NCBI RefSeq assembly: GCF_055900595.2
Contig: NZ_CM148325.1
Strand: one strand, 5' to 3'
Length of the DNA stretch: 64,000 nt
Each line of letters opens with the position of its first letter. Position 1 is the stretch's first letter. The translations under genes were made by a program, and so were the position numbers. Of the stretch, positions 410 through 9,928 are shown piece after piece. The notes below the pieces were generated by a model, which saw only the letters and a list, made by a program, of their open reading frames with translations, did not search any database and was not told where the DNA came from.

Positions 410-736
410 CTATTTATTTAAACCGGACATATTAATACCTATATACGATAATTCATCTAAATCTTGATGCCTATTTGTAGGTTCTAAATAACGTGCAGGA
501 AATAAATCCCTGGCAGCATGATAATATAAAATAGAGATAATATCCTTTTGTATTTCCTTCAATGCCTCTCTATTTTCACAACCAGTAATTTCATAAACCT
601 CCTGATCGCTACAATTTTCTAATACATAATTTATGCACGATTCATAAATCATCAAACCGTCTTCTGATACATCAATGTGAAATTGATTCACTGTTCCTGA
701 AGGATTTCTATGTTCCAATAAATACATTTCTCTCAC
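410..736 (-). CDS. Putative Rhs immunity protein (RhsI), 108 aa, cognate to the CT toxin of the upstream rhs
   Basis: Starts 3 nt after the rhs stop on the same strand with a GTG start; AT-rich like the rhs tip. This is the canonical position for an immunity gene. Confidence 0.6.
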   Translation of the reverse strand: MREMYLLEHRNPSGTVNQFHIDVSEDGLMIYESCINYVLENCSDQEVYEITGCENREALKEIQKDIISILYYHAARDLFPARYLEPTNRHQDLDELSYIGINMSGLNK

Positions 737-739
737 CTA

Positions 740-3700
740 TTAAAATCTTACATAATCACTAAATATATCTCTAAATTCATCAAGTTCACTTTGAGTTGGT
801 CTTTCCCATCGGTCAGTATTTCTATTCATTCGATGTTGGATATTTTTCCTAGAGATATCCCTCATAGATGTGACAATTTCAGAACCATCTTTTTCAATTA
901 TATGTGCTCTGCCATTTGGTCCCAGTACAACCCACCGCCCATCTGATTGCTTTAATATATCGCTAGAACGCGCATTTTGAAGATCATTAATAACAGCACC
1001 AATAGGTCGACCTTCACGATGCCGTTGTAAAGCATGACTACTTTTCTTCAAAGTAGCACACATCTGTCCCAACGGATCGATCCAACTTAATGGATTCGGT
1101 GCATATTGATAGAGATTCAGTCCCCCCGCCAGCCCTATCGGGTCCGTTACCATGAACCGCCCGACATCCGGATCATAGTACCTGTGCAGATTGTAATGCA
1201 GCCCTGTTTCCCTGTCGAGGTACTGTCCCTGGTAGCGCAGGTTCTGCTCCACCCCGCCGTGGTCCTTCTCCTGTATCGTGTTACCCCAGACCTGATACCC
1301 CGTCTCCCACACGATTTTCCCGTCACTGTCCGTCATCTCTTCCGGCGCACCGTTCACATCCGTGTGAAAATACAGTATCCGGTTCGGTCCCTCTTTGCCC
1401 GCCTTATCCACCCGCGCCAGCGGTTCATAACTCCCCTGGTCACTGTAGATATACAGGCTGCCTGTTCCCTCCGGCCTGCTCTCCTGCGCCAGCCGCATTC
1501 CGTCCCATAAAAATGTCGTCCGGTTATACGGTTTACCGTCAGGGCTGATGTGCTGTTTTTCCGTCCGCCTCCCCAGCGCATCGTACACATACCGGTACGT
1601 TCCCCGCGCTGTCGTCACTTCCACCATCCGGTGTTCCGCATCATAACGGTAACTCTGCGCTCCGCTCCGGCCCTGCTTTTCCACCGTCCGGCCAAATTCG
1701 TCGTAACGGTAGTGCACACCACGGTAAGACATCAGCCGGTTGAACGGCACAACGCTGTTTTCTGCCGTGGCCCTTTCCCCCGCACGCCGCCCCAGCAGGT
1801 TTCCCGCCGCGTCGTACTGCCAGCTCGCCAGATACCCCTCATCCTCCGAGCGGCACGCCGTGATGCGCCCCGTGGGGTCGTAGAAGTAATCCGTTTCCCC
1901 CCGCCGGCTGTGCCGCGTCTTCAGCAGTTCATCCTCGCCGCTGTAGCTGTACTGCCGGTCCGTGAACGTCTCCGGTACCACCCCGCGCATCCCGCTGTAT
2001 GTCTCCCTGCGCTTCAGCCGCCCGGCGGTGTCGTAAAGCTGCCGCGTGCTCAGTCGCCCCTGACTTCTGAGCACCTCCCGGTGCAGGGCGTCACGTGTGA
2101 ACTCGCTGATGACCTCCCGGTCCAGATTTATCTGCTGGAGATGGCCGCTGCCGTAGTACAGATGGCGCTGCGTTCTGCCGTCCGGAAAGGTGGTGGCTGT
2201 CCGGTTGCCCAGTTCATCGTACTGATGGGTCAGGACGCCCTGCGCCGTCTCCTCGGTCAGCATCCGCCCCAGTCTGTCGTAACTGAAGCGGATAACTTCC
2301 GGCGCGTCAGTTTCGTGCCGCTGGCGGCGGATTTCCAGTAGCTGGTCTGCCGCATCATGGACGTATTCCGTATGGCTATCGGCTGTCTCCTTTGCCGTGA
2401 GCCGGCCCGCCGCATCGCGCGCCAGCCGGTGACGGATTTCACCGCCCCGGTCCCCGGTGAACACCACTTCCGTGACCGCGTTCAGCGCGTTGTAACGGTA
2501 CGCCTGGCGGCAGCCGTCCGGATTTATCTGCTCCGCCAGACGGTCCAGCACATCATGGCGGAACCGGTAGCTTTCTCCGTTCTCGTTCGTGAGCGTGACC
2601 AGACGCCCGTAAGCATCGTACCCGAACGCCGTCCTGCGCCCCGTCGCGTCTGTCCGGCTGCGCACCCGGCCCTGCCCGTCCCGCTGCCAGCGCGTTATCC
2701 TCCCCATCGGGCTGGTGTACTTCACCAGCCTGCCCGCCGCGTCCGACTGGTAATTCACCGTGCGGCCGTCCGCCAGTATCACCTCCGTCAGATGACCGCT
2801 GTCGTCATACCCGTAGCGCGTGCTGTGGCTCTGCGCGTCTGTCATTCTGATAAGCCGCGTGCGTTCGTCGTAGAACCAGGCCGTCTGCGAGCCGGAACAG
2901 TCCGTGTGCCGCATGAGCTGCCCGTCTTCGTTCCACTGAAGGTATTTATTCCCCCCACGGGCATCGGTTATCTGCACCACCTGGCCGTGGCGGTCATACT
3001 GATACCGGGTGTTCTGCTGCAGCGGGTCGGTCACCGCAAGAAGATTGCCGCGTTCATCGTACTCACAGCACCAGCTGTTCCCCGCCGCGTCCACCTCCGT
3101 TTCCGGCTGGTGCCACACCGGGTGCCACTGTGTCTGTGCCACCCGCCCCAGCGGGTCGTGCGTCTCCGTGATATGCCCCTGCCGGTCATACACATAGCGC
3201 CATTTGCCGCCCTGCGCATCGCTCATTCCCAGTAACAGCCGTTCTTCGTCGCTCCAGCGGAACGTCGTCACCTGCCCGGCTTCGTCCTGGTACGCCGTCA
3301 CCTGGTTCTGCGCATCCCACTGATGATAACGCGTGCGCCCCAGCCCGTCCGTCACGCACAGCCTGCGTGCCGCCAGGCTCCACGCCAGCCGGTACTGTTC
3401 ACCGCTGTCCGTGTGGTGCCCCGTCACCCGCCACGCTGCGTCATCCGGGCCTTCATACCAGCCCCACTGGTAATAATACCCTTCGCCGCCCGGCTGGCGG
3501 TGCAGGGTCATGCAGTGGTTTTCGTCGTAAGCAAACTCACGCAGCAGGTGCCCCGTGCTGTCGTACACGCCGTTCAGGTCGCCGGCCTCGTCATAGCGGT
3601 AACGACGCAGCAGTAAAGGAGCCGTCTCAGGGAAATGCTGATAAATCTGTGTCACCCGCCGGGGATGCGCCGCCAGTTCATAATGCAGACGAATGCACGG

Positions 3701-5371
3701 ACGCTGCTGTTCACCGCTGATTTGCGTGATGCGCCCCAGCTCGTCGTAGTACAGATTCAGACAGTTGCTGTTGCGGTCGCCCAGCATTTTCAGCCGCTGG
3801 CGCTGCGGGTGATGCGGGTCGGCTTCAAACAGAAAAAACTGCCCGTCATCGCTGCTGATAAGCCAGTGCCCCTGCTCACCCCGCCGTACTGCCAGTCCTT
3901 CGCCGGGGCTGTAAAACCCGCTCCCCGGCAGCACGGCCTCCATATCCAGGCGTCGTCCCATGCCCGACACAAAGGTCATACAGTTTTCGTCAGCAGTACC
4001 CGGCGTGCGCTCGAGGCTGACTTCATACATCACGCTCCAGCCCTGCCCGAACATCCCTTCCGTGCGGTCGTCACGACTGCTGTACACGCGCTGCCAGTCC
4101 AGCGGAAAGTGGCCCGGCAGACTGAAATCGAAGTCATCGTCATCCGCCAGATATTTGGCTCCGGTGGCGGCATTGACCGGATGCGGAAGGGCACTGATGG
4201 CCTTCTGCGTCATCACCCCCATCCCGACACTGGCAGCAAAACAGGCGATTTTAGAAAGCATTTTGCCCGGGCGAAGAAACATCAGCGCCACGGTTGCCAC
4301 CAGGGTTATCTGCGACCTGCCGCTTCTGATATCCCTGACCACCAGTAACGGACCGCCAATGCGGACATCCGGTGACAAAAACGCCCCGTTCCCCGGCTCA
4401 TTCACCACCCTGGCCTCGCAGGTACAGCGTGCCCCGCTGCGTGCCGCCGGCTGGCTGTTGATACGCACATCCCGCGCGCCTTCCGCGATATATTCCGCTG
4501 CGGGCGGTTCATCATCGCCTTTGAACAGATTACTGATGCTGCCAATAACCGCATTCACTCCCTGAAAGGCGGTTTCCAGCATACCGCCCGGACTCAACAG
4601 GTTAAGGGCCGTTCCCAGGGGGTCATCCAGAAAGGCGGCTTTTTTTTGTGCGAGAAACTGCGTCAGTGAGGAGGGATGTTTATGGCAGTCGATTTTATCG
4701 TCAGGGGTCGGGGTGGAGCCCGGGGCCGCACTGGCCACGGTGGGCTGCCATAGTTCCGACACAAAATGTGTCACGCCATCCACCATTTCAGAACGCCCTT
4801 CTTCCGTACTGAGCTGGTCGTGCAGCGCCCGGGACATCAGCACAGGCCCTGTCACCGGGTTAACCGCCAGGGCTATGGCCCCCGCCATTTCCAGATATTC
4901 CCCGGCCACATCCAGAAACGTTCTGGCATCCTCCTGACGCTGCGCTTCTTCCTGTTCCGCCTTCGCCTTCGCCTGCGCCTCCTGCGCCTCAATGTCCTGC
5001 CGTGATGCCGCAGTCGCCGCGGCCCGCGCGGCAGGTTTGCTGTTGATCCATGTGTCGCCAGAGCCGGTGAGGATGTAACCTTCAATCTGAGGCGGGAAAA
5101 GCCAGTTCGCCAGTTGCTCACTTTCCCTACTGATTCGGTCATTCCAGCCCTGATACGACATAAATACCGCTGTTGCTATACCGATCGCTAAAATGGTTGA
5201 GCAGCCCAGCGTTGCCACTTCAACTCCGCCCAGCGCCGCCATGGTTCCGACAACCAGAACATCCACCAGGGCTGTGGCGGCAACCTCTACAACTGCCCCC
5301 AGCACATCTGCTATAAACGACGTATGCAGCAGGGCATCACCCTGCCTTGCTGCCCAGAATGCCTCTTCCAT
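740..5371 (-). CDS. prePAAR/PAAR-Rhs type VI secretion effector, 1543 aa
   Basis: N-terminus carries an AARxxDxxxH prePAAR motif (AARQGDALLH, residues 7-16) and hydrophobic segments flanking a PAAR-like region. Long YD/Rhs repeat core follows. Core ends with [26 protein letters not shown], then a 108-aa C-terminal tip. Confidence 0.9.
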   Translation of the reverse strand: MEEAFWAARQGDALLHTSFIADVLGAVVEVAATALVDVLVVGTMAALGGVEVATLGCSTILAIGIATAVFMSYQGWNDRISRESEQLANWLFPPQIEGYILTGSGDTWINSKPAARAAATAASRQDIEAQEAQAKAKAEQEEAQRQEDARTFLDVAGEYLEMAGAIALAVNPVTGPVLMSRALHDQLSTEEGRSEMVDGVTHFVSELWQPTVASAAPGSTPTPDDKIDCHKHPSSLTQFLAQKKAAFLDDPLGTALNLLSPGGMLETAFQGVNAVIGSISNLFKGDDEPPAAEYIAEGARDVRINSQPAARSGARCTCEARVVNEPGNGAFLSPDVRIGGPLLVVRDIRSGRSQITLVATVALMFLRPGKMLSKIACFAASVGMGVMTQKAISALPHPVNAATGAKYLADDDDFDFSLPGHFPLDWQRVYSSRDDRTEGMFGQGWSVMYEVSLERTPGTADENCMTFVSGMGRRLDMEAVLPGSGFYSPGEGLAVRRGEQGHWLISSDDGQFFLFEADPHHPQRQRLKMLGDRNSNCLNLYYDELGRITQISGEQQRPCIRLHYELAAHPRRVTQIYQHFPETAPLLLRRYRYDEAGDLNGVYDSTGHLLREFAYDENHCMTLHRQPGGEGYYYQWGWYEGPDDAAWRVTGHHTDSGEQYRLAWSLAARRLCVTDGLGRTRYHQWDAQNQVTAYQDEAGQVTTFRWSDEERLLLGMSDAQGGKWRYVYDRQGHITETHDPLGRVAQTQWHPVWHQPETEVDAAGNSWCCEYDERGNLLAVTDPLQQNTRYQYDRHGQVVQITDARGGNKYLQWNEDGQLMRHTDCSGSQTAWFYDERTRLIRMTDAQSHSTRYGYDDSGHLTEVILADGRTVNYQSDAAGRLVKYTSPMGRITRWQRDGQGRVRSRTDATGRRTAFGYDAYGRLVTLTNENGESYRFRHDVLDRLAEQINPDGCRQAYRYNALNAVTEVVFTGDRGGEIRHRLARDAAGRLTAKETADSHTEYVHDAADQLLEIRRQRHETDAPEVIRFSYDRLGRMLTEETAQGVLTHQYDELGNRTATTFPDGRTQRHLYYGSGHLQQINLDREVISEFTRDALHREVLRSQGRLSTRQLYDTAGRLKRRETYSGMRGVVPETFTDRQYSYSGEDELLKTRHSRRGETDYFYDPTGRITACRSEDEGYLASWQYDAAGNLLGRRAGERATAENSVVPFNRLMSYRGVHYRYDEFGRTVEKQGRSGAQSYRYDAEHRMVEVTTARGTYRYVYDALGRRTEKQHISPDGKPYNRTTFLWDGMRLAQESRPEGTGSLYIYSDQGSYEPLARVDKAGKEGPNRILYFHTDVNGAPEEMTDSDGKIVWETGYQVWGNTIQEKDHGGVEQNLRYQGQYLDRETGLHYNLHRYYDPDVGRFMVTDPIGLAGGLNLYQYAPNPLSWIDPLGQMCATLKKSSHALQRHREGRPIGAVINDLQNARSSDILKQSDGRWVVLGPNGRAHIIEKDGSEIVTSMRDISRKNIQHRMNRNTDRWERPTQSELDEFRDIFSDYVRF
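743..1066 (-). other. Rhs C-terminal toxin domain (108 aa after the DPLG junction), activity unknown
   Basis: Sequence after IDPLG: QMCATLKKSSHALQRHREGRPIGAVINDLQ...DEFRDIFSDYVRF. Composition drops sharply to AT-rich relative to the GC-rich core. Confidence 0.6.
1074..1185. repeat. Direct repeat copy 2 (Rhs core/CT junction within the full-length rhs)
   Basis: ~85% identical to 188..301. Confidence 0.7.
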
Positions 5372-5389: not shown

Positions 5390-5842
5390 TTAATTCGTCC
5401 CGGCTTCCTGCCGTATCCTGAAGCGCAGATTCTTTTTAATTTCAGCCCAGCGCGTCATATCTGCCGGGGTCAGCGGTGTGGTTCTGGCGTAGGTGAAGGC
5501 CATCATGACCCGCTCACCCGGCAACACAAATGCCACCTGACACTGGTACACCTGCTCGTTACCCCGGAGAAACTGACTCTGTATTTCCAGCCCTTCTTCA
5601 CCGTCATTAATCCCTACCCGTGTTACCTGAACGGGCGTGTAGTGAAGATCCTTTACCTGTTTCTCCAGTTTTTTCATTTGCTGTTCAATCTGGGAGGCTA
5701 ATTCGTCTCCTTCCTGCATCTGGCCCCGGCTGATAATGAGTGCAGCGTCGGGATCGCTGAGACGCAGCATATTAATCGTACTGTCCTGAATAATATTCCC
5801 GGGGAAAGTTACAACAGTTTCATTGAGATAATACTCCGTCAT
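5390..5842 (-). CDS. DUF1795/EagR-family chaperone for the prePAAR-Rhs effector, 150 aa
   Basis: Sits between vgrG and rhs on the same strand, 18 bp upstream of the rhs start; size and N-terminal pattern (MTEYYLNETVVTFPG) fit the Eag family. Confidence 0.65.
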   Translation of the reverse strand: MTEYYLNETVVTFPGNIIQDSTINMLRLSDPDAALIISRGQMQEGDELASQIEQQMKKLEKQVKDLHYTPVQVTRVGINDGEEGLEIQSQFLRGNEQVYQCQVAFVLPGERVMMAFTYARTTPLTPADMTRWAEIKKNLRFRIRQEAGTN

Positions 5843-5892: not shown

Positions 5893-7887
5893 TTATTTTT
5901 TAGTCATGAAGGTGACGTCTATTGCCAACTGAAGGGCTGTTTTCTCCGATGTTCCAGGCGGAGGTATATCTGCCGCTCTGTCATTCATATTTAAATCAAG
6001 CTGCCCTGATTGTGTATTTATCTTTCCATTTTCCGTTGCGGTAATATTAAAATTCTTACAGGTTATATTAAATATTCCGTCACTGGTCATTTGCAGGATA
6101 GTTTCTCCGCAGCTAAGAATAATGGAATCTCCCGCAGCAAGGCGTAAATTCTGTACGGCCTGAATCGTTTTATTTCGTCCGGCAAGGGAGGTATCATCCG
6201 TCTGGACTGTTAGAGAACGTTTCTCACCAATAATCGCAGTTTCTGTTTTATCAATGACTTTAAGGCGATTATTGCCCACCCAGTGGCTTTCATTATTATT
6301 TACTTCAATGCGTTGATCTTTCTCGGCATGCAACCAGATTTCTTCTCCGCCAGTTTTATCCTCAAAACGCAAGGCGTTAGCATTGGTCGGGCCGCCGCCG
6401 ATAGTGTGGCTGTAAAACCCGCTTTGCGTCGCTGCGCCCGGTAGTCCCCACGGTGGCATGGTGTCCTGATTGTAGGTACGCCCAACGATTATCGGTAAAT
6501 CCGGATCACCGTTTTTGAAATCCACCAGTACTTCCTGACCAATGCGCGGGATCTGAATGCCACCGAATCCTTTACCCGCCCACGGATAACTGACACGGAC
6601 CCAGCAGGAACTGTTTTCATCATTCTTACCGTAACGATCCCAGCCAAACTGAACTTTCACCCGGCCATATTTATCTGTCCAGATTTCCTGTCCCGTCGGG
6701 CCGGTCACGATGGCGCTCTGCGGGCCTTTAGTATGGGGTTTGCTCAGGGTTCGCTGCGGGCGGTAAACTTCGCTGGTGGGATGCAGTTCAAAGCTGGTTG
6801 AGTAAGAGAAATGCTGCTCCTGGCCGCTGTGTTGCGCATTGTCCTGTATAAATAGCGTGGTCTGAACCAGCAGATATTCCCGGTTCACTTCGGCTGTCGG
6901 ATAGTTTTCCAGGGTGAAGGTAAAACCTGTCATCAGGGTACGAATATTGCCGCTGCCCTGTACCCGACTACCGGGGCTACACTGTTCTTCCATGCGGATG
7001 CGTGTCAGCATTTCACCTTCACTCTTTGTGAAGTAGTCTCCCGGCCATTCGTAGTGCTCATATTCAGCAAGGCCAGTTTCACGCGGATTAGCCACGGTGC
7101 TCTTGAGCAGTGAACGCGGCTTCATAAAGTCGAAATCATTTAGTACCCACTGTCCGCTGCGCAGGCTTTCATTTGCTGTGATGGTATGGATAAATTCCTT
7201 GTCCAGTTTCAGCCCTTTCTGGTAATAACACACCAGTGGCGAATCTGCGCACGCCTTGTGGACATTAATGGCATCAGCCAGCACTAACGTGTGACTGTTC
7301 TCGTTGTGCTCAAACCACCAGTAGATACCCCACTCCTGCATCAGGCGCTGAATAAAATCGAAATCTGTTTCACCGTACTGCACCTGCCAGGCGCGAGTCG
7401 GATAATTTTCCACCAGTCGTTTTTCCACTGGCCAGGGGTACTCATCCAGTACCTCATCCAGGATCTCCACCACGTTTTTATTTTGAAACGCTTTGTAGTC
7501 ACTAGTGTGGGTCAGTATTTTTAACCACGGTTCAATCCGCAGTTCATACACCACCGAACGTCCTTGATGACCAGCCACGCGTGCCGCCGTCACCAGCCCG
7601 CTGATATAACGTTTTCCGCCGCCATCCAATTCGATATTGACGCACAGATCTTTGCCCACCATCGGTTTGAGCTGCAGGTTGGCTGCGGGGGAAACATAGC
7701 CCAGGTTCAGGATGTCAGGAGTTTTTAATTTAATAGAATAAGTAAATAGTTCCCCTACTGTTTCTGTCCCCCCTAAGCTTGCAAACAGTAACATTCCATC
7801 AGGAACTGCGCTGCCGCTCAAAGTCACGTTATGTGTACCCGATCCAGTTAGTGCGCCGGATGGATAATCTGTAGCTGCAAAACTCAT
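5893..7887 (-). CDS. vgrG: VgrG type VI secretion spike protein, 664 aa
   Basis: gp27/gp5-like hallmark segments ([62 protein letters not shown]) with a C-terminal beta-helix-like repeat region; 3' end is AT-rich. Confidence 0.9.
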
Positions 7888-8242
7888 AATTAATCCTTTT
7901 AACTAGAAATGGCTAAGTGCTAATAAGAAATCTTACAGAGAATAAAATATGCAATATATTCGTAGCTGGCATAAAACATCTCAATACTTATGCGTGCTAC
8001 TGAAGATACTATCAACCATATATGCCTTGAAGAATGCACCATCATGTTAACCTGGTGGAAACATTCACCTAAAGTACATTAATAAAACCAATAAAATTAT
8101 TTAATCTGTTATTTGATATGATTATCATCAAATCTTAAAATACGTTCCCCGGTTCTAATTATGCTAAAACCATAATATTCTTTTGTACTTCCGGAAGAGA
8201 GCATATATTTCCCGATATACATAACATCTGAAGATAGCTCAC

Positions 8243-8464
8243 TTATGTCAATACATTGGGATCGAACTGACCTGTCACTCTTTTCAATTTTATTGCATTG
8301 CCATATTTACCTTCATATAAAATATAATTTGAAATAATATTCCCATCGTCTGGTTTTGAACAAACCCGCCCGTCTTGTAAATATACATTACCGGGTAACA
8401 ATGGGCGAACATAATCACCAACAGTGCATCCCGATAAAAAGAATAACAAAAAGAATCTCTTCAT
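8243..8464 (-). CDS. Small predicted lipoprotein, 73 aa; candidate periplasmic immunity protein
   Basis: Signal peptide with lipobox (MKRFFLLFFLSGC). Start overlaps the stop of the upstream HExxH gene by 4 bp (ATGA), suggesting translational coupling. AT-rich. Confidence 0.55.
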   Translation of the reverse strand: MKRFFLLFFLSGCTVGDYVRPLLPGNVYLQDGRVCSKPDDGNIISNYILYEGKYGNAIKLKRVTGQFDPNVLT

Positions 8465-9030
8465 ATGACACCAGCAGGAAATAAATTAAGCACCTTCTTG
8501 TATTTTTCCGATAGAGTATTCACTGATTCTGTTGTATCACCTACATAGTTAACATTTGCCAAATCAGAGACCAATCCATAGTTAATCAATAGCCAATAAT
8601 CAGCAACTATAGATGCTTGTTGTTCCATAGAATAAGAAGAAATTGACTGTAAATTAAGATCGTAATGATAATTTGCCGCCCAGGAAAATAAACCACGCAA
8701 CTTAACTGCATACCCTTTCTGATATTGCCAAACATGCATCGTTTCATGAATAAACAAGTGAGAAGCACCTGCAACTGTTTCACGATCACCAGGCATTGCT
8801 TGCGATGAAAAATCTGAACTATAAACAGCATCAGGATAATACATTTCCCCGTTTGGGGTCATCGCTGTTCTTTCCCCTTGACCAGGCAAATATTTTTCAT
8901 TGTGGATCCATACCTTGCTATAATCAATTGTATTCTCAAAAATCGATCTGGCCAATGTTAATTCACCAGATGTCATTCTCCTTAATGATATATCCTTTCC
9001 CCTGGAAATAATATCTTTCAGATAAAACAC
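8461..9030 (-). CDS. Putative zincin-like metallopeptidase, 189 aa; candidate secreted effector
   Basis: HExxH motif extended to HETMHVWQYQ at residues 95-104, an HExxHxxQ pattern I recall as typical of DUF4157-type toxin domains. No signal peptide. AT-rich. Confidence 0.5.
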   Translation of the reverse strand: MFYLKDIISRGKDISLRRMTSGELTLARSIFENTIDYSKVWIHNEKYLPGQGERTAMTPNGEMYYPDAVYSSDFSSQAMPGDRETVAGASHLFIHETMHVWQYQKGYAVKLRGLFSWAANYHYDLNLQSISSYSMEQQASIVADYWLLINYGLVSDLANVNYVGDTTESVNTLSEKYKKVLNLFPAGVI

Positions 9031-9928
9031 AAACGCTCTTTGATGTTCAACATTTCCACTTTATACAGTATTGATGACATCATCTTCATAGAAAATGAAA
9101 TCAAAGTAAGTTATCAACGTTTCCCGTTATGATTTTTTAACCTTAATTCTCAGCATTTTTATTAATCTATCTTCAATATCAATAACCGATGCAAATGATT
9201 ACGCAGTTATCATAACTCCCATCAATTGATTAATATCTGTAAACGCTACCGCCCCACCCTGATATTTTAATCTGCACATAGCAATCTTAACGTTATGCCC
9301 CATACATTAGTAATGTAAATTAAGAATTCGGAATATATCAAATTCACTTCATAAATTAATATCGAGAATGATATACACATTAATTATATTGAAGTCATGT
9401 TTTAAGCGTTGTAATGACCATGGAACAGGACTAATTCCAGAAACTCCTGTCAGGCAATAGCGCGTTTATCACCCTACATGCCTTTTACATTTTTTAGCCT
9501 TTTCTGTAACGTCGGCAACTGGCTCATTTAATCAGCAATTGTATCGGCATTTGGCGTATTACCCCTGAAACCTGCCATGTGCTAGCCCCTCACTATTCAA
9601 TGATCCAACCACGCCAGTGTCCACTGCAACCACTGGCGTTCAGAGCGACGAACGAGTGGCGCAAGAGTAGGACTGCCGTCGGGTATCATCAAACCAATAG
9701 TGGTTGTTTCCGTCATAATTTCATCAGGTTGCTATTTTGTTGCCGGCCGCCTTTATCCCCGCATATTTATAGCGGGATTATTTTGCATCGTTACACGATA
9801 AAAGGTAGGATTCTGCGCCGACAGTTATACCCATAAAGAATAATGGTGAATCTTGTCATCGCCAGGATGAATAAACATTGTTCATGGCAACTTATATGAC
9901 TTTTTCATTAAAGCAATCAGGGAGAGCA

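Follow-up and report, generated by a model that had tools for sequence, protein, structure and literature searches.

Putative VgrG2b-family metallopeptidase effector and its frameshifted lipoprotein immunity gene in a vgrG-rhs island of E. coli

Architecture of the locus

The DNA analysed here, referred to below as the window, is a stretch of 64,000 nucleotides from contig NZ_CM148325.1 of NCBI RefSeq assembly GCF_055900595.2. In it, two small genes on the minus strand, coding for a putative metallopeptidase toxin and a lipoprotein, lie immediately upstream of a vgrG gene. The parts of this pair and of the genes downstream of it are as follows, in window coordinates.

8461..9030, minus strand: toxin gene, a stand-alone gluzincin of the VgrG2b C-terminal domain family and putative cargo T6SS effector; its longest ORF has 189 codons, with a GTG start at 9028..9030
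8461..8991, minus strand: canonical 176-aa form of the toxin, from the PGAP start call at codon 14
8989..8991, minus strand: codon 14 of the toxin ORF, the canonical start position, here ATA (by alignment and script)
8725..8748, minus strand: HETMHVWQ motif, as read from the sequence
8734..8748, minus strand: HETMH, predicted zinc-binding and catalytic motif (H95, E96, H99), from the alignment to PDB 6H56 and invariance in 55 homologues
8617..8625, minus strand: E136-Q137-Q138, E136 being the predicted third zinc ligand by alignment to 6H56
8109..8464, minus strand: immunity lipoprotein gene, a pseudogene here by comparison with intact 118-aa alleles
8243..8464, minus strand: translated part of the immunity gene, 73 aa (ORF list)
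8109..8256, minus strand: out-of-frame remainder of the immunity gene, still open in the other frame
8426..8437, minus strand: lipobox L-S-G-C, with C13 as the predicted acylated cysteine, from the sequence
8257, minus strand: lesion GT to A, a net loss of 1 bp that shifts the frame at codon 70, from the alignment to intact alleles
5893..7887, minus strand: vgrG, 664 aa, the spike gene directly downstream of the pair (ORF list; PGAP name in the twin genome)
5390..5842, minus strand: DcrB-related/DUF1795 (Eag-type) chaperone gene for the PAAR-Rhs toxin (PGAP name)
740..5371, minus strand: PAAR-Rhs toxin gene, 1543 aa (ORF list, PGAP name)

Most of this layout had been described in a first-pass annotation of the same DNA, and we found its elements in place. 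The minus-strand ORF of 189 codons and its HETMHVWQ motif both lie where they had been reported, the toxin's TGA stop codon and the ATG of the 73-codon ORF overlap by 4 bp (ATGA), and the vgrG, eagR and PAAR-Rhs genes follow downstream on the same strand. The pair is AT-rich, as claimed: G+C content is 0.32-0.37 over positions 8001-9500, compared with roughly 0.5 in the core genes on either side. Around the island are ansP, yncE, pqqU (yncD), mcbR and curA. At the same site K-12 carries yncG-yncH-rhsE', which bears out the earlier remark that yncG and yncH are the K-12 occupants, and on the ansP side homology with K-12 stops at window position 9774.

The Citrobacter equivalent of the chaperone gene matches Pfam DcrB. 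For the C-terminus of the Rhs protein (last 150 residues), a Pfam search returned Ntox47 alone, at an i-E of 0.11, and thus no confident family. A promoter/terminator scan of positions 7700-9900 gave counts of 12 and 1, respectively, against 10.0 +/- 2.8 and 1.2 in shuffled controls; as these were not above the controls, no operon boundary was drawn.

The toxin and the VgrG2b family

Database searches returned 136 relatives of the toxin, with lengths of about 170-185 aa. The named ones come nearly all from Enterobacterales, the one exception being labelled Acinetobacter, and their usual database name is 'type IV secretion protein Rhs', which is wrong; one relative is fused to PAAR. Among the E. 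coli alleles of the toxin, dN/dS ranges from 0.08 to 0.35, which indicates that the gene has been under purifying selection. Together with the 136 homologues, these values argue that the ORF is a real gene and not a chance reading frame.

When the window protein was compared with PDB sequences using phmmer, it matched entry 6H56, the effector domain of VgrG2b, over residues 17-152 (E 8.7e-20, 74.6 bits). A profile built from 55 family sequences matched a single solved structure, which was also 6H56 (E 9e-38). The identity between the window toxin and the VgrG2b domain is about 31-37%. In the alignment, H95, E96 and H99 of the toxin correspond to H935, E936 and H939, and E136 corresponds to E983. 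VgrG2b is a thermolysin-like gluzincin, in which H935/E936/H939 form the catalytic motif and E983 is the third zinc ligand (PMC6899460). All four positions are invariant in the 55 homologues, as are R17, E23, Q51, P59, G61, Q102, Y123, Q138, D144 and Y177; Q137 is shared by 90% or more of them.

Structure prediction, which the first-pass annotation had put forward as a check, gave a zincin-type fold, that of a VgrG2b-like gluzincin. The AlphaFold2 model of the toxin had a pLDDT of 89.3 and a pTM of 0.87, with residues 1-11 of the 189-aa form below a pLDDT of 50, and a Foldseek search (E 9.3e-9, probability 1.00) agreed with the VgrG2b assignment. The earlier statement that no characterised effector family could be assigned therefore has to be withdrawn: sequence and fold both mark the toxin clearly as a homologue of the metallopeptidase domain at the C-terminus of VgrG2b.

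The family was identified solely through the PDB sequence search. Scanning of the toxin against Pfam yielded no family, RE_HindIII being the one hit (i-E 0.13, spurious), and scans with NCBIfam and PADLOC models gave no match. A connection with Pfam DUF4157 had also been suggested, and this turned out to be marginal. The window toxin has an extended HExxHxxQ-type motif in common with PF13699 (eCIS_core, formerly DUF4157), and many orthologues of the VgrG2b C-terminal domain have been classified as DUF4157 (Wood et al., PMC6899460). The window protein itself did not match PF13699 even at E<=10, and its relatives are mostly weak matches (32 of 55 at E<=0.1, one at E<=0.001). An M91/NleD-like or Tox-MPTase identity was considered and rejected; Peptidase_M91 was matched by three of the 55 relatives at E<=0.1.

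According to the alignments the toxin domain begins at about residue 15, which means that there is no separate N-terminal loading domain. The N-terminus also lacks any hydrophobic segment that would mark a signal peptide, in line with the earlier claim: for 12-residue segments within residues 1-45, the highest Kyte-Doolittle mean is 0.6. The homologues start at the position of codon 14, giving a protein of 176 aa; three other E. coli lineages have ATG at this codon, and the window has ATA, as do the relatives closest to it. The originally described 189-aa frame is thus open over its whole length, 8461..9030, but it depends on a GTG start, whereas the usual start elsewhere is codon 14. The upstream GTG has been retained in those E. 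coli alleles that are closest to the window; in one E. coli lineage the upstream GTG frame is broken. ATA at codon 14 is also present in R32_14_1F, a relative with an intact T6SS and an intact immunity gene. It follows that the ATA codon is older than the loss of the T6SS and that, taken alone, it is no proof of toxin inactivation. Translation could start from the GTG at codon 1, and the toxin ORF is otherwise intact.

The activity of such an enzyme can be approached through its characterised relatives. The C-terminal domain of VgrG2b, an H2-T6SS protein of P. aeruginosa, is toxic in the periplasm, where it causes midcell blebbing and lysis, and it lowers the level of the membrane-bound lipoproteins MltC, LolB and RcsF (PMC6899460). 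These effects could also be read as those of a peptidoglycan peptidase, an amidase or endopeptidase of the Tae or M23 type, instead of a cutter of envelope proteins. The periplasmic site of action and the periplasmic immunity partner would suit such an enzyme, as would the lysis and the beta-lactam-like appearance of the midcell blebs, and the top pull-downs of VgrG2b included MltC, PBP5 and PBP6a (PMC6899460). However, peptidoglycan hydrolase activity of the VgrG2b C-terminal domain was not detected in four assays (PMC6899460); the domain was inactive on Micrococcus cells, in sacculus zymograms and in HPLC muropeptide profiles (PMC6899460). In our analysis, the toxin had no sequence or fold similarity to the Tae, M23 or NlpC/P60 hydrolase families, and its fold, the same as that of 6H56, is found in gluzincins that cleave proteins or peptides and not in LAS, M23 or NlpC/P60 enzymes. 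We regard a peptidoglycan target as unlikely.

The window pair resembles the VgrG2b/PA0261 system in its zinc site (HExxH plus Glu) and in having a small, envelope-targeted immunity gene directly downstream of the toxin. It differs in that the toxin stands alone, with about 176 aa, and is not a C-terminal extension of a VgrG spike. Furthermore, the E. coli/Citrobacter/Salmonella branch has, unlike VgrG2b, eight extra residues (PGDRETVA) just before the HExxH helix. With this insert beside the active-site helix, the E. coli branch could have a different target. A Salmonella enterica relative falls in a cluster with 65-69% identity.

A closer counterpart is SARI_02727 of S. arizonae, which has the same stand-alone cargo form, with 189 aa and equal residue numbering (H95, E96). 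This protein is toxic when sent to the periplasm, and its lipoprotein partner SARI_02726 protects partly (PMC12992299); in competition assays the two behave as an effector-immunity pair (PMC12992299). Periplasmic toxicity that is zinc-dependent, lost in the catalytic-Glu mutant and relieved by the immunity protein has been reported for VgrG2b (PMC6899460) and for SARI_02727 (PMC12992299). Homology to these two systems supports the earlier proposal of a secreted zincin toxin that would act in the periplasm and be countered by a lipoprotein.

The immunity lipoprotein and its frameshift

The 73-codon ORF begins MKRFFLLFFLSGC, which is a standard lipoprotein signal with an LSGC lipobox. The ORF and the lipobox had been recognised correctly; as a complete 73-aa lipoprotein, however, the product does not stand, being the frameshifted remnant of a 118-aa gene. 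Relative to the intact alleles (118-120 aa), the window has A in place of GT at 8257, and this leads to a stop after codon 73. In a genome that is 99.9% identical, the immunity gene carries the PGAP label 'frameshifted'. The lesion is recent, because beyond it the gene can still be read without a stop, in the other frame, as far as 8109.

The NCBIfam model NF045617, 'putative T6SS immunity periplasmic lipoprotein', was found by the intact allele at E 2.3e-7 (30.9 bits) and by the window allele at E 2.6e-7 (30.7 bits), both under the cutoff of 43 bits. Nearly all of this score comes from the first 52 residues, which are the most conserved part of the family and are retained in the window product. 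The SARI_02727/SARI_02726 pair (SPI-20) is bicistronic like the window pair, and its lipoprotein also matches the NCBIfam putative T6SS immunity lipoprotein model. SARI_02726 has 154 aa and matches Pfam DUF7480, whereas the E. coli partner has 118 aa (73 here) and neither the window allele nor an intact E. coli allele gave a direct match to DUF7480 (PF24295). In Serratia, Acerihabitans and Enterobacter, the gene that immediately follows the toxin homologue does match this domain. When the intact immunity protein was used in a word-based search for homologues, E. coli sequences alone were returned, and the link to DUF7480 was drawn through synteny and hhalign, in which a profile of the E. coli/Citrobacter type aligned with three DUF7480-positive partners over 98 columns (87.3% probability, E 3.8e-6).

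Across nine partners from six genera, the invariant residues are G12-C13 of the lipobox, G16, C35, C71 and Y83. The window product retains C35 and is without C71, Y83 and 45 further residues. Intact alleles carry C35 and C71, and the two-cysteine, full-length immunity fold is lacking in the window allele. Conserved periplasmic cysteines are a feature that the intact E. coli-type partners share with PA0261, the periplasmic protein that neutralises the VgrG2b C-terminal domain by binding and whose level depends on DsbA (PMC6899460). On this analogy, C35 and C71 would fit the disulfide requirement reported for PA0261. While PA0261 is a soluble periplasmic protein, the window-type immunity protein is a lipoprotein. 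Many Enterobacteriaceae encode a VgrG2b-type metallopeptidase as a putative cargo effector, with PA0261 homologues that are predicted lipoproteins; the S. arizonae pair was already predicted there, and on cell fractionation its lipoprotein SARI_02726 was recovered with the outer membrane (PMC6899460 throughout).

Genomic context, probable decay of the module and its meaning

The surroundings of homologous pairs were compared in other bacteria. In Citrobacter farmeri, the gene order of the window (toxin-immunity-vgrG-DcrB-PAAR-Rhs) occurs at the end of the main T6SS cluster, after tssM-tagF, and in Enterobacter kobei the order is tssK-tssL-tagL-hcp-clpV-toxin-immunity-vgrG. In Raoultella/Klebsiella hcp comes next after the pair, and in Acerihabitans a toxin fused to PAAR is followed by the immunity gene. 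The SARI pair is located inside the main T6SS cluster, and the window pair in the vgrG-rhs island at ansP. With its size of about 20 kDa, the toxin could travel either within the lumen of Hcp or at the tip of VgrG.

Orphan pairs are found as well, in Serratia, Pantoea and Yersinia. The Serratia pairs (WP_108680118.1/WP_108680119.1) belong to the same family, with relatives that are 45-52% identical, and like the window pair they have the lipoprotein downstream and go under the wrong name 'type IV secretion protein Rhs'. They differ from the E. coli pair, which is linked to vgrG-eag-PAAR-Rhs, in being orphans within defence or multi-conflict islands that have no adjacent vgrG. The many relatives that lie far from T6SS genes, the multi-conflict islands of Serratia (10.1101/2024.01.28.577318) and the homologues in Sphingomonadaceae, which are seldom T6SS carriers (Wood et al., PMC6899460), could be taken to mean that the pair is unrelated to the T6SS and stands beside vgrG by chance, its role being in phage defence, in something like a toxin-antitoxin system or, as a peptidase with its lipoprotein, in housekeeping. 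We consider this highly improbable. Fusions of the domain to PAAR and to VgrG exist, vgrG or hcp adjoins the pair in four genera, and the S. arizonae homologue contributes to inter-strain competition (PMC12992299). The Serratia 'Rhs IV effector' proteins have been recognised as VgrG2b toxic domains that occur as orphans, with a lipoprotein as immunity partner, and showed no phage-defence activity (10.1101/2024.01.28.577318); a role in phage defence was rejected on this negative phage test and the lack of a PADLOC match.

Counts in E. coli also tie the pair to its spike gene. Among 5426 complete E. coli genomes the pair is present in 230 (about 4%), always on the chromosome, and vgrG of the window's type is present in 234; the two are adjacent in every locus inspected.

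An exact 61-mer containing the window lesion was found in 8 of the 5426 genomes. A contiguous aspV-tssA'-ISAs1'-yafV junction, at 100% identity, was found in exactly eight genomes, and these are the eight with the frameshift. In the clone with the frameshift the T6SS cluster at aspV has thus been deleted, and the machine seems to have been lost. This reading comes from the aspV and metV sites of one twin genome, 99.9% identical, and from the junction search, and from these we infer the state of the window's own genome; at the metV site of the twin there were no T6SS genes. Among relatives whose immunity gene is intact, R32_14_1F is the nearest, and at aspV it has a complete cluster comprising tssH, tssB, tssC, hcp, tssJ, tssK, tssL, tssM, tagF and vgrG-DcrB-Rhs. 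In another lineage, RM14723, the immunity gene has independently lost 1 bp (leaving 62 aa) beside truncated vgrG and rhs, which points to relaxed selection. The most economical interpretation is that, after loss of the machine or the spike, the immunity gene falls into decay.

As the immunity frameshift and the aspV T6SS deletion coincide in the same eight genomes, the module is probably defunct here, and the pair in the window is probably a relic and not a working weapon. Several observations would also be compatible with a pair that still works, in which the toxin is made from GTG (189 aa), the 61-residue mature lipoprotein binds it and a T6SS is encoded elsewhere. The toxin ORF and the downstream vgrG, chaperone and Rhs genes are intact, the closest E. 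coli alleles have kept the upstream GTG, the most conserved part of the immunity protein, its first 52 residues, remains, and the search for a T6SS covered just two candidate sites. Yet the invariant C71 and Y83 and 45 other residues are gone, the stability of PA0261 depends on its disulfide (PMC6899460), the aspV deletion is present in 8 of 8 genomes with the frameshift, and a second frameshift arose independently in a lineage with degraded vgrG and rhs. We hold a functioning pair to be quite unlikely.

Taken together, we consider it very likely that the two ORFs represent an effector-immunity module that belongs with the VgrG2b C-terminal metallopeptidases and has the stand-alone 'cargo' layout typical of Enterobacterales, here most likely a non-functional relic. 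In its working form, and by analogy with the characterised systems, a toxin of about 20 kDa without an export signal would be fired by a T6SS spike or tube into the periplasm of a neighbour. There it would act as a zinc peptidase, with the metal predicted to be held by H95, H99 and E136 and with E96 as the catalytic base, and it would damage the cell envelope as VgrG2b does. The partner would be a periplasmic lipoprotein anchored in the outer membrane that binds and blocks the toxin, and it probably needs a C35-C71 disulfide. The copy in the window, with its immunity gene frameshifted (73 of 118 residues, C71 lost), the toxin ATG changed to ATA and the aspV T6SS cluster deleted in its clone, would be a leftover after loss of the machinery. 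It is very unlikely that, rather than plain decay, we are looking at a truncated 61-residue lipoprotein that still neutralises as a minimal immunity core, or at a toxin kept for a T6SS-independent role.

As judged from homology, the E. coli pair thus adds one more member to a family of known architecture, compartment of action and immunity type. The main value of the finding is in annotation, the pair's current names being 'hypothetical protein' or the erroneous 'type IV secretion protein Rhs'. The toxin goes unrecognised by Pfam and NCBIfam models, and a family model built from an alignment of the VgrG2b C-terminal domain would mend this. The locus is also a small, clean example of the fate of an effector-immunity module after loss of the T6SS. 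No new mechanism is opened by it, and the question of the family's substrate was already posed in 2019; if the E. coli branch has a different target, the search for that target would have a tractable host in E. coli.

Immunity frameshift and the T6SS cluster at aspV

In genomes carrying the frameshift in the lipoprotein immunity gene, the aspV region, which lies outside the window, is represented here by a 99.9%-identical twin of the window genome:

L012:11389-13900: aspV locus, twin genome NZ_CP098223.1

The eight complete E. coli genomes carrying the immunity frameshift are exactly the same eight that have a contiguous junction at aspV, in the order aspV, tssA fragment, hypothetical gene, ISAs1 fragment and yafV, and thus a deletion of the T6SS cluster at this site. 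A full T6SS cluster is present at aspV in R32_14_1F (L020), the closest relative with an intact immunity gene.

A second lesion of the immunity gene was found in a lineage approximately 93% identical to the window:

L014:3010-3365: immunity gene of E. coli RM14723, with a 1-bp deletion and a product of 62 AA

This deletion is a second event, independent of the lesion in the window. The toxin open reading frame of RM14723 is still intact, and a truncated vgrG and rhs adjoin the broken immunity gene.

Toxin sequence and database naming

Between the window and its 99.9%-identical twins, one non-synonymous change was observed in the toxin, a VgrG2b-C-ter-family metallopeptidase. Residue 157 (window 8560..8562, minus strand) is serine in the window (GLVSDLA) vs. 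alanine in the twins (GLVADLA), at a weakly conserved position. The toxin was covered by no Pfam or NCBIfam model. Many of its homologues appear in database and RefSeq rows as 'type IV secretion protein Rhs', and others simply as 'hypothetical protein'; homologues with these names have neither Rhs repeats nor a link to type IV secretion.

Regions flanking the toxin module

The PAAR-Rhs gene ends in a toxin domain of its own and is followed directly at its 3′ end by a small open reading frame, and an AT-rich stretch extends from the metallopeptidase toxin gene to the point where homology to K-12 resumes:

740..1192, minus strand: C-terminal toxin domain of PAAR-Rhs (the approximately 110 AA after the DPxGL-type motif)
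410..736, minus strand: 108-AA open reading frame
9031..9774: AT-rich stretch, approximately 740 bp, G+C approximately 0.32

No confident Pfam family was assigned to the PAAR-Rhs C-terminal domain, with Ntox47 found only at an i-E of 0.11. The 108-AA frame is likely the immunity gene for this toxin and likewise has no family assignment. In the twin genome, the PGAP annotation places a fragment of 39 AA, named 'glutathione S-transferase', within the AT-rich stretch (approximately 9597..9716). When the K-12 ansP-yncG-yncH-rhsE stretch, yncG included, was compared with the window by megablast, no match was obtained beyond the ansP side.

Gene neighborhood in other lineages

On a Raoultella/Klebsiella metagenome contig (L016:7001-8390), the gene immediately after the toxin-immunity pair is hcp, not vgrG, and therefore the carriers of this toxin family may differ between lineages.
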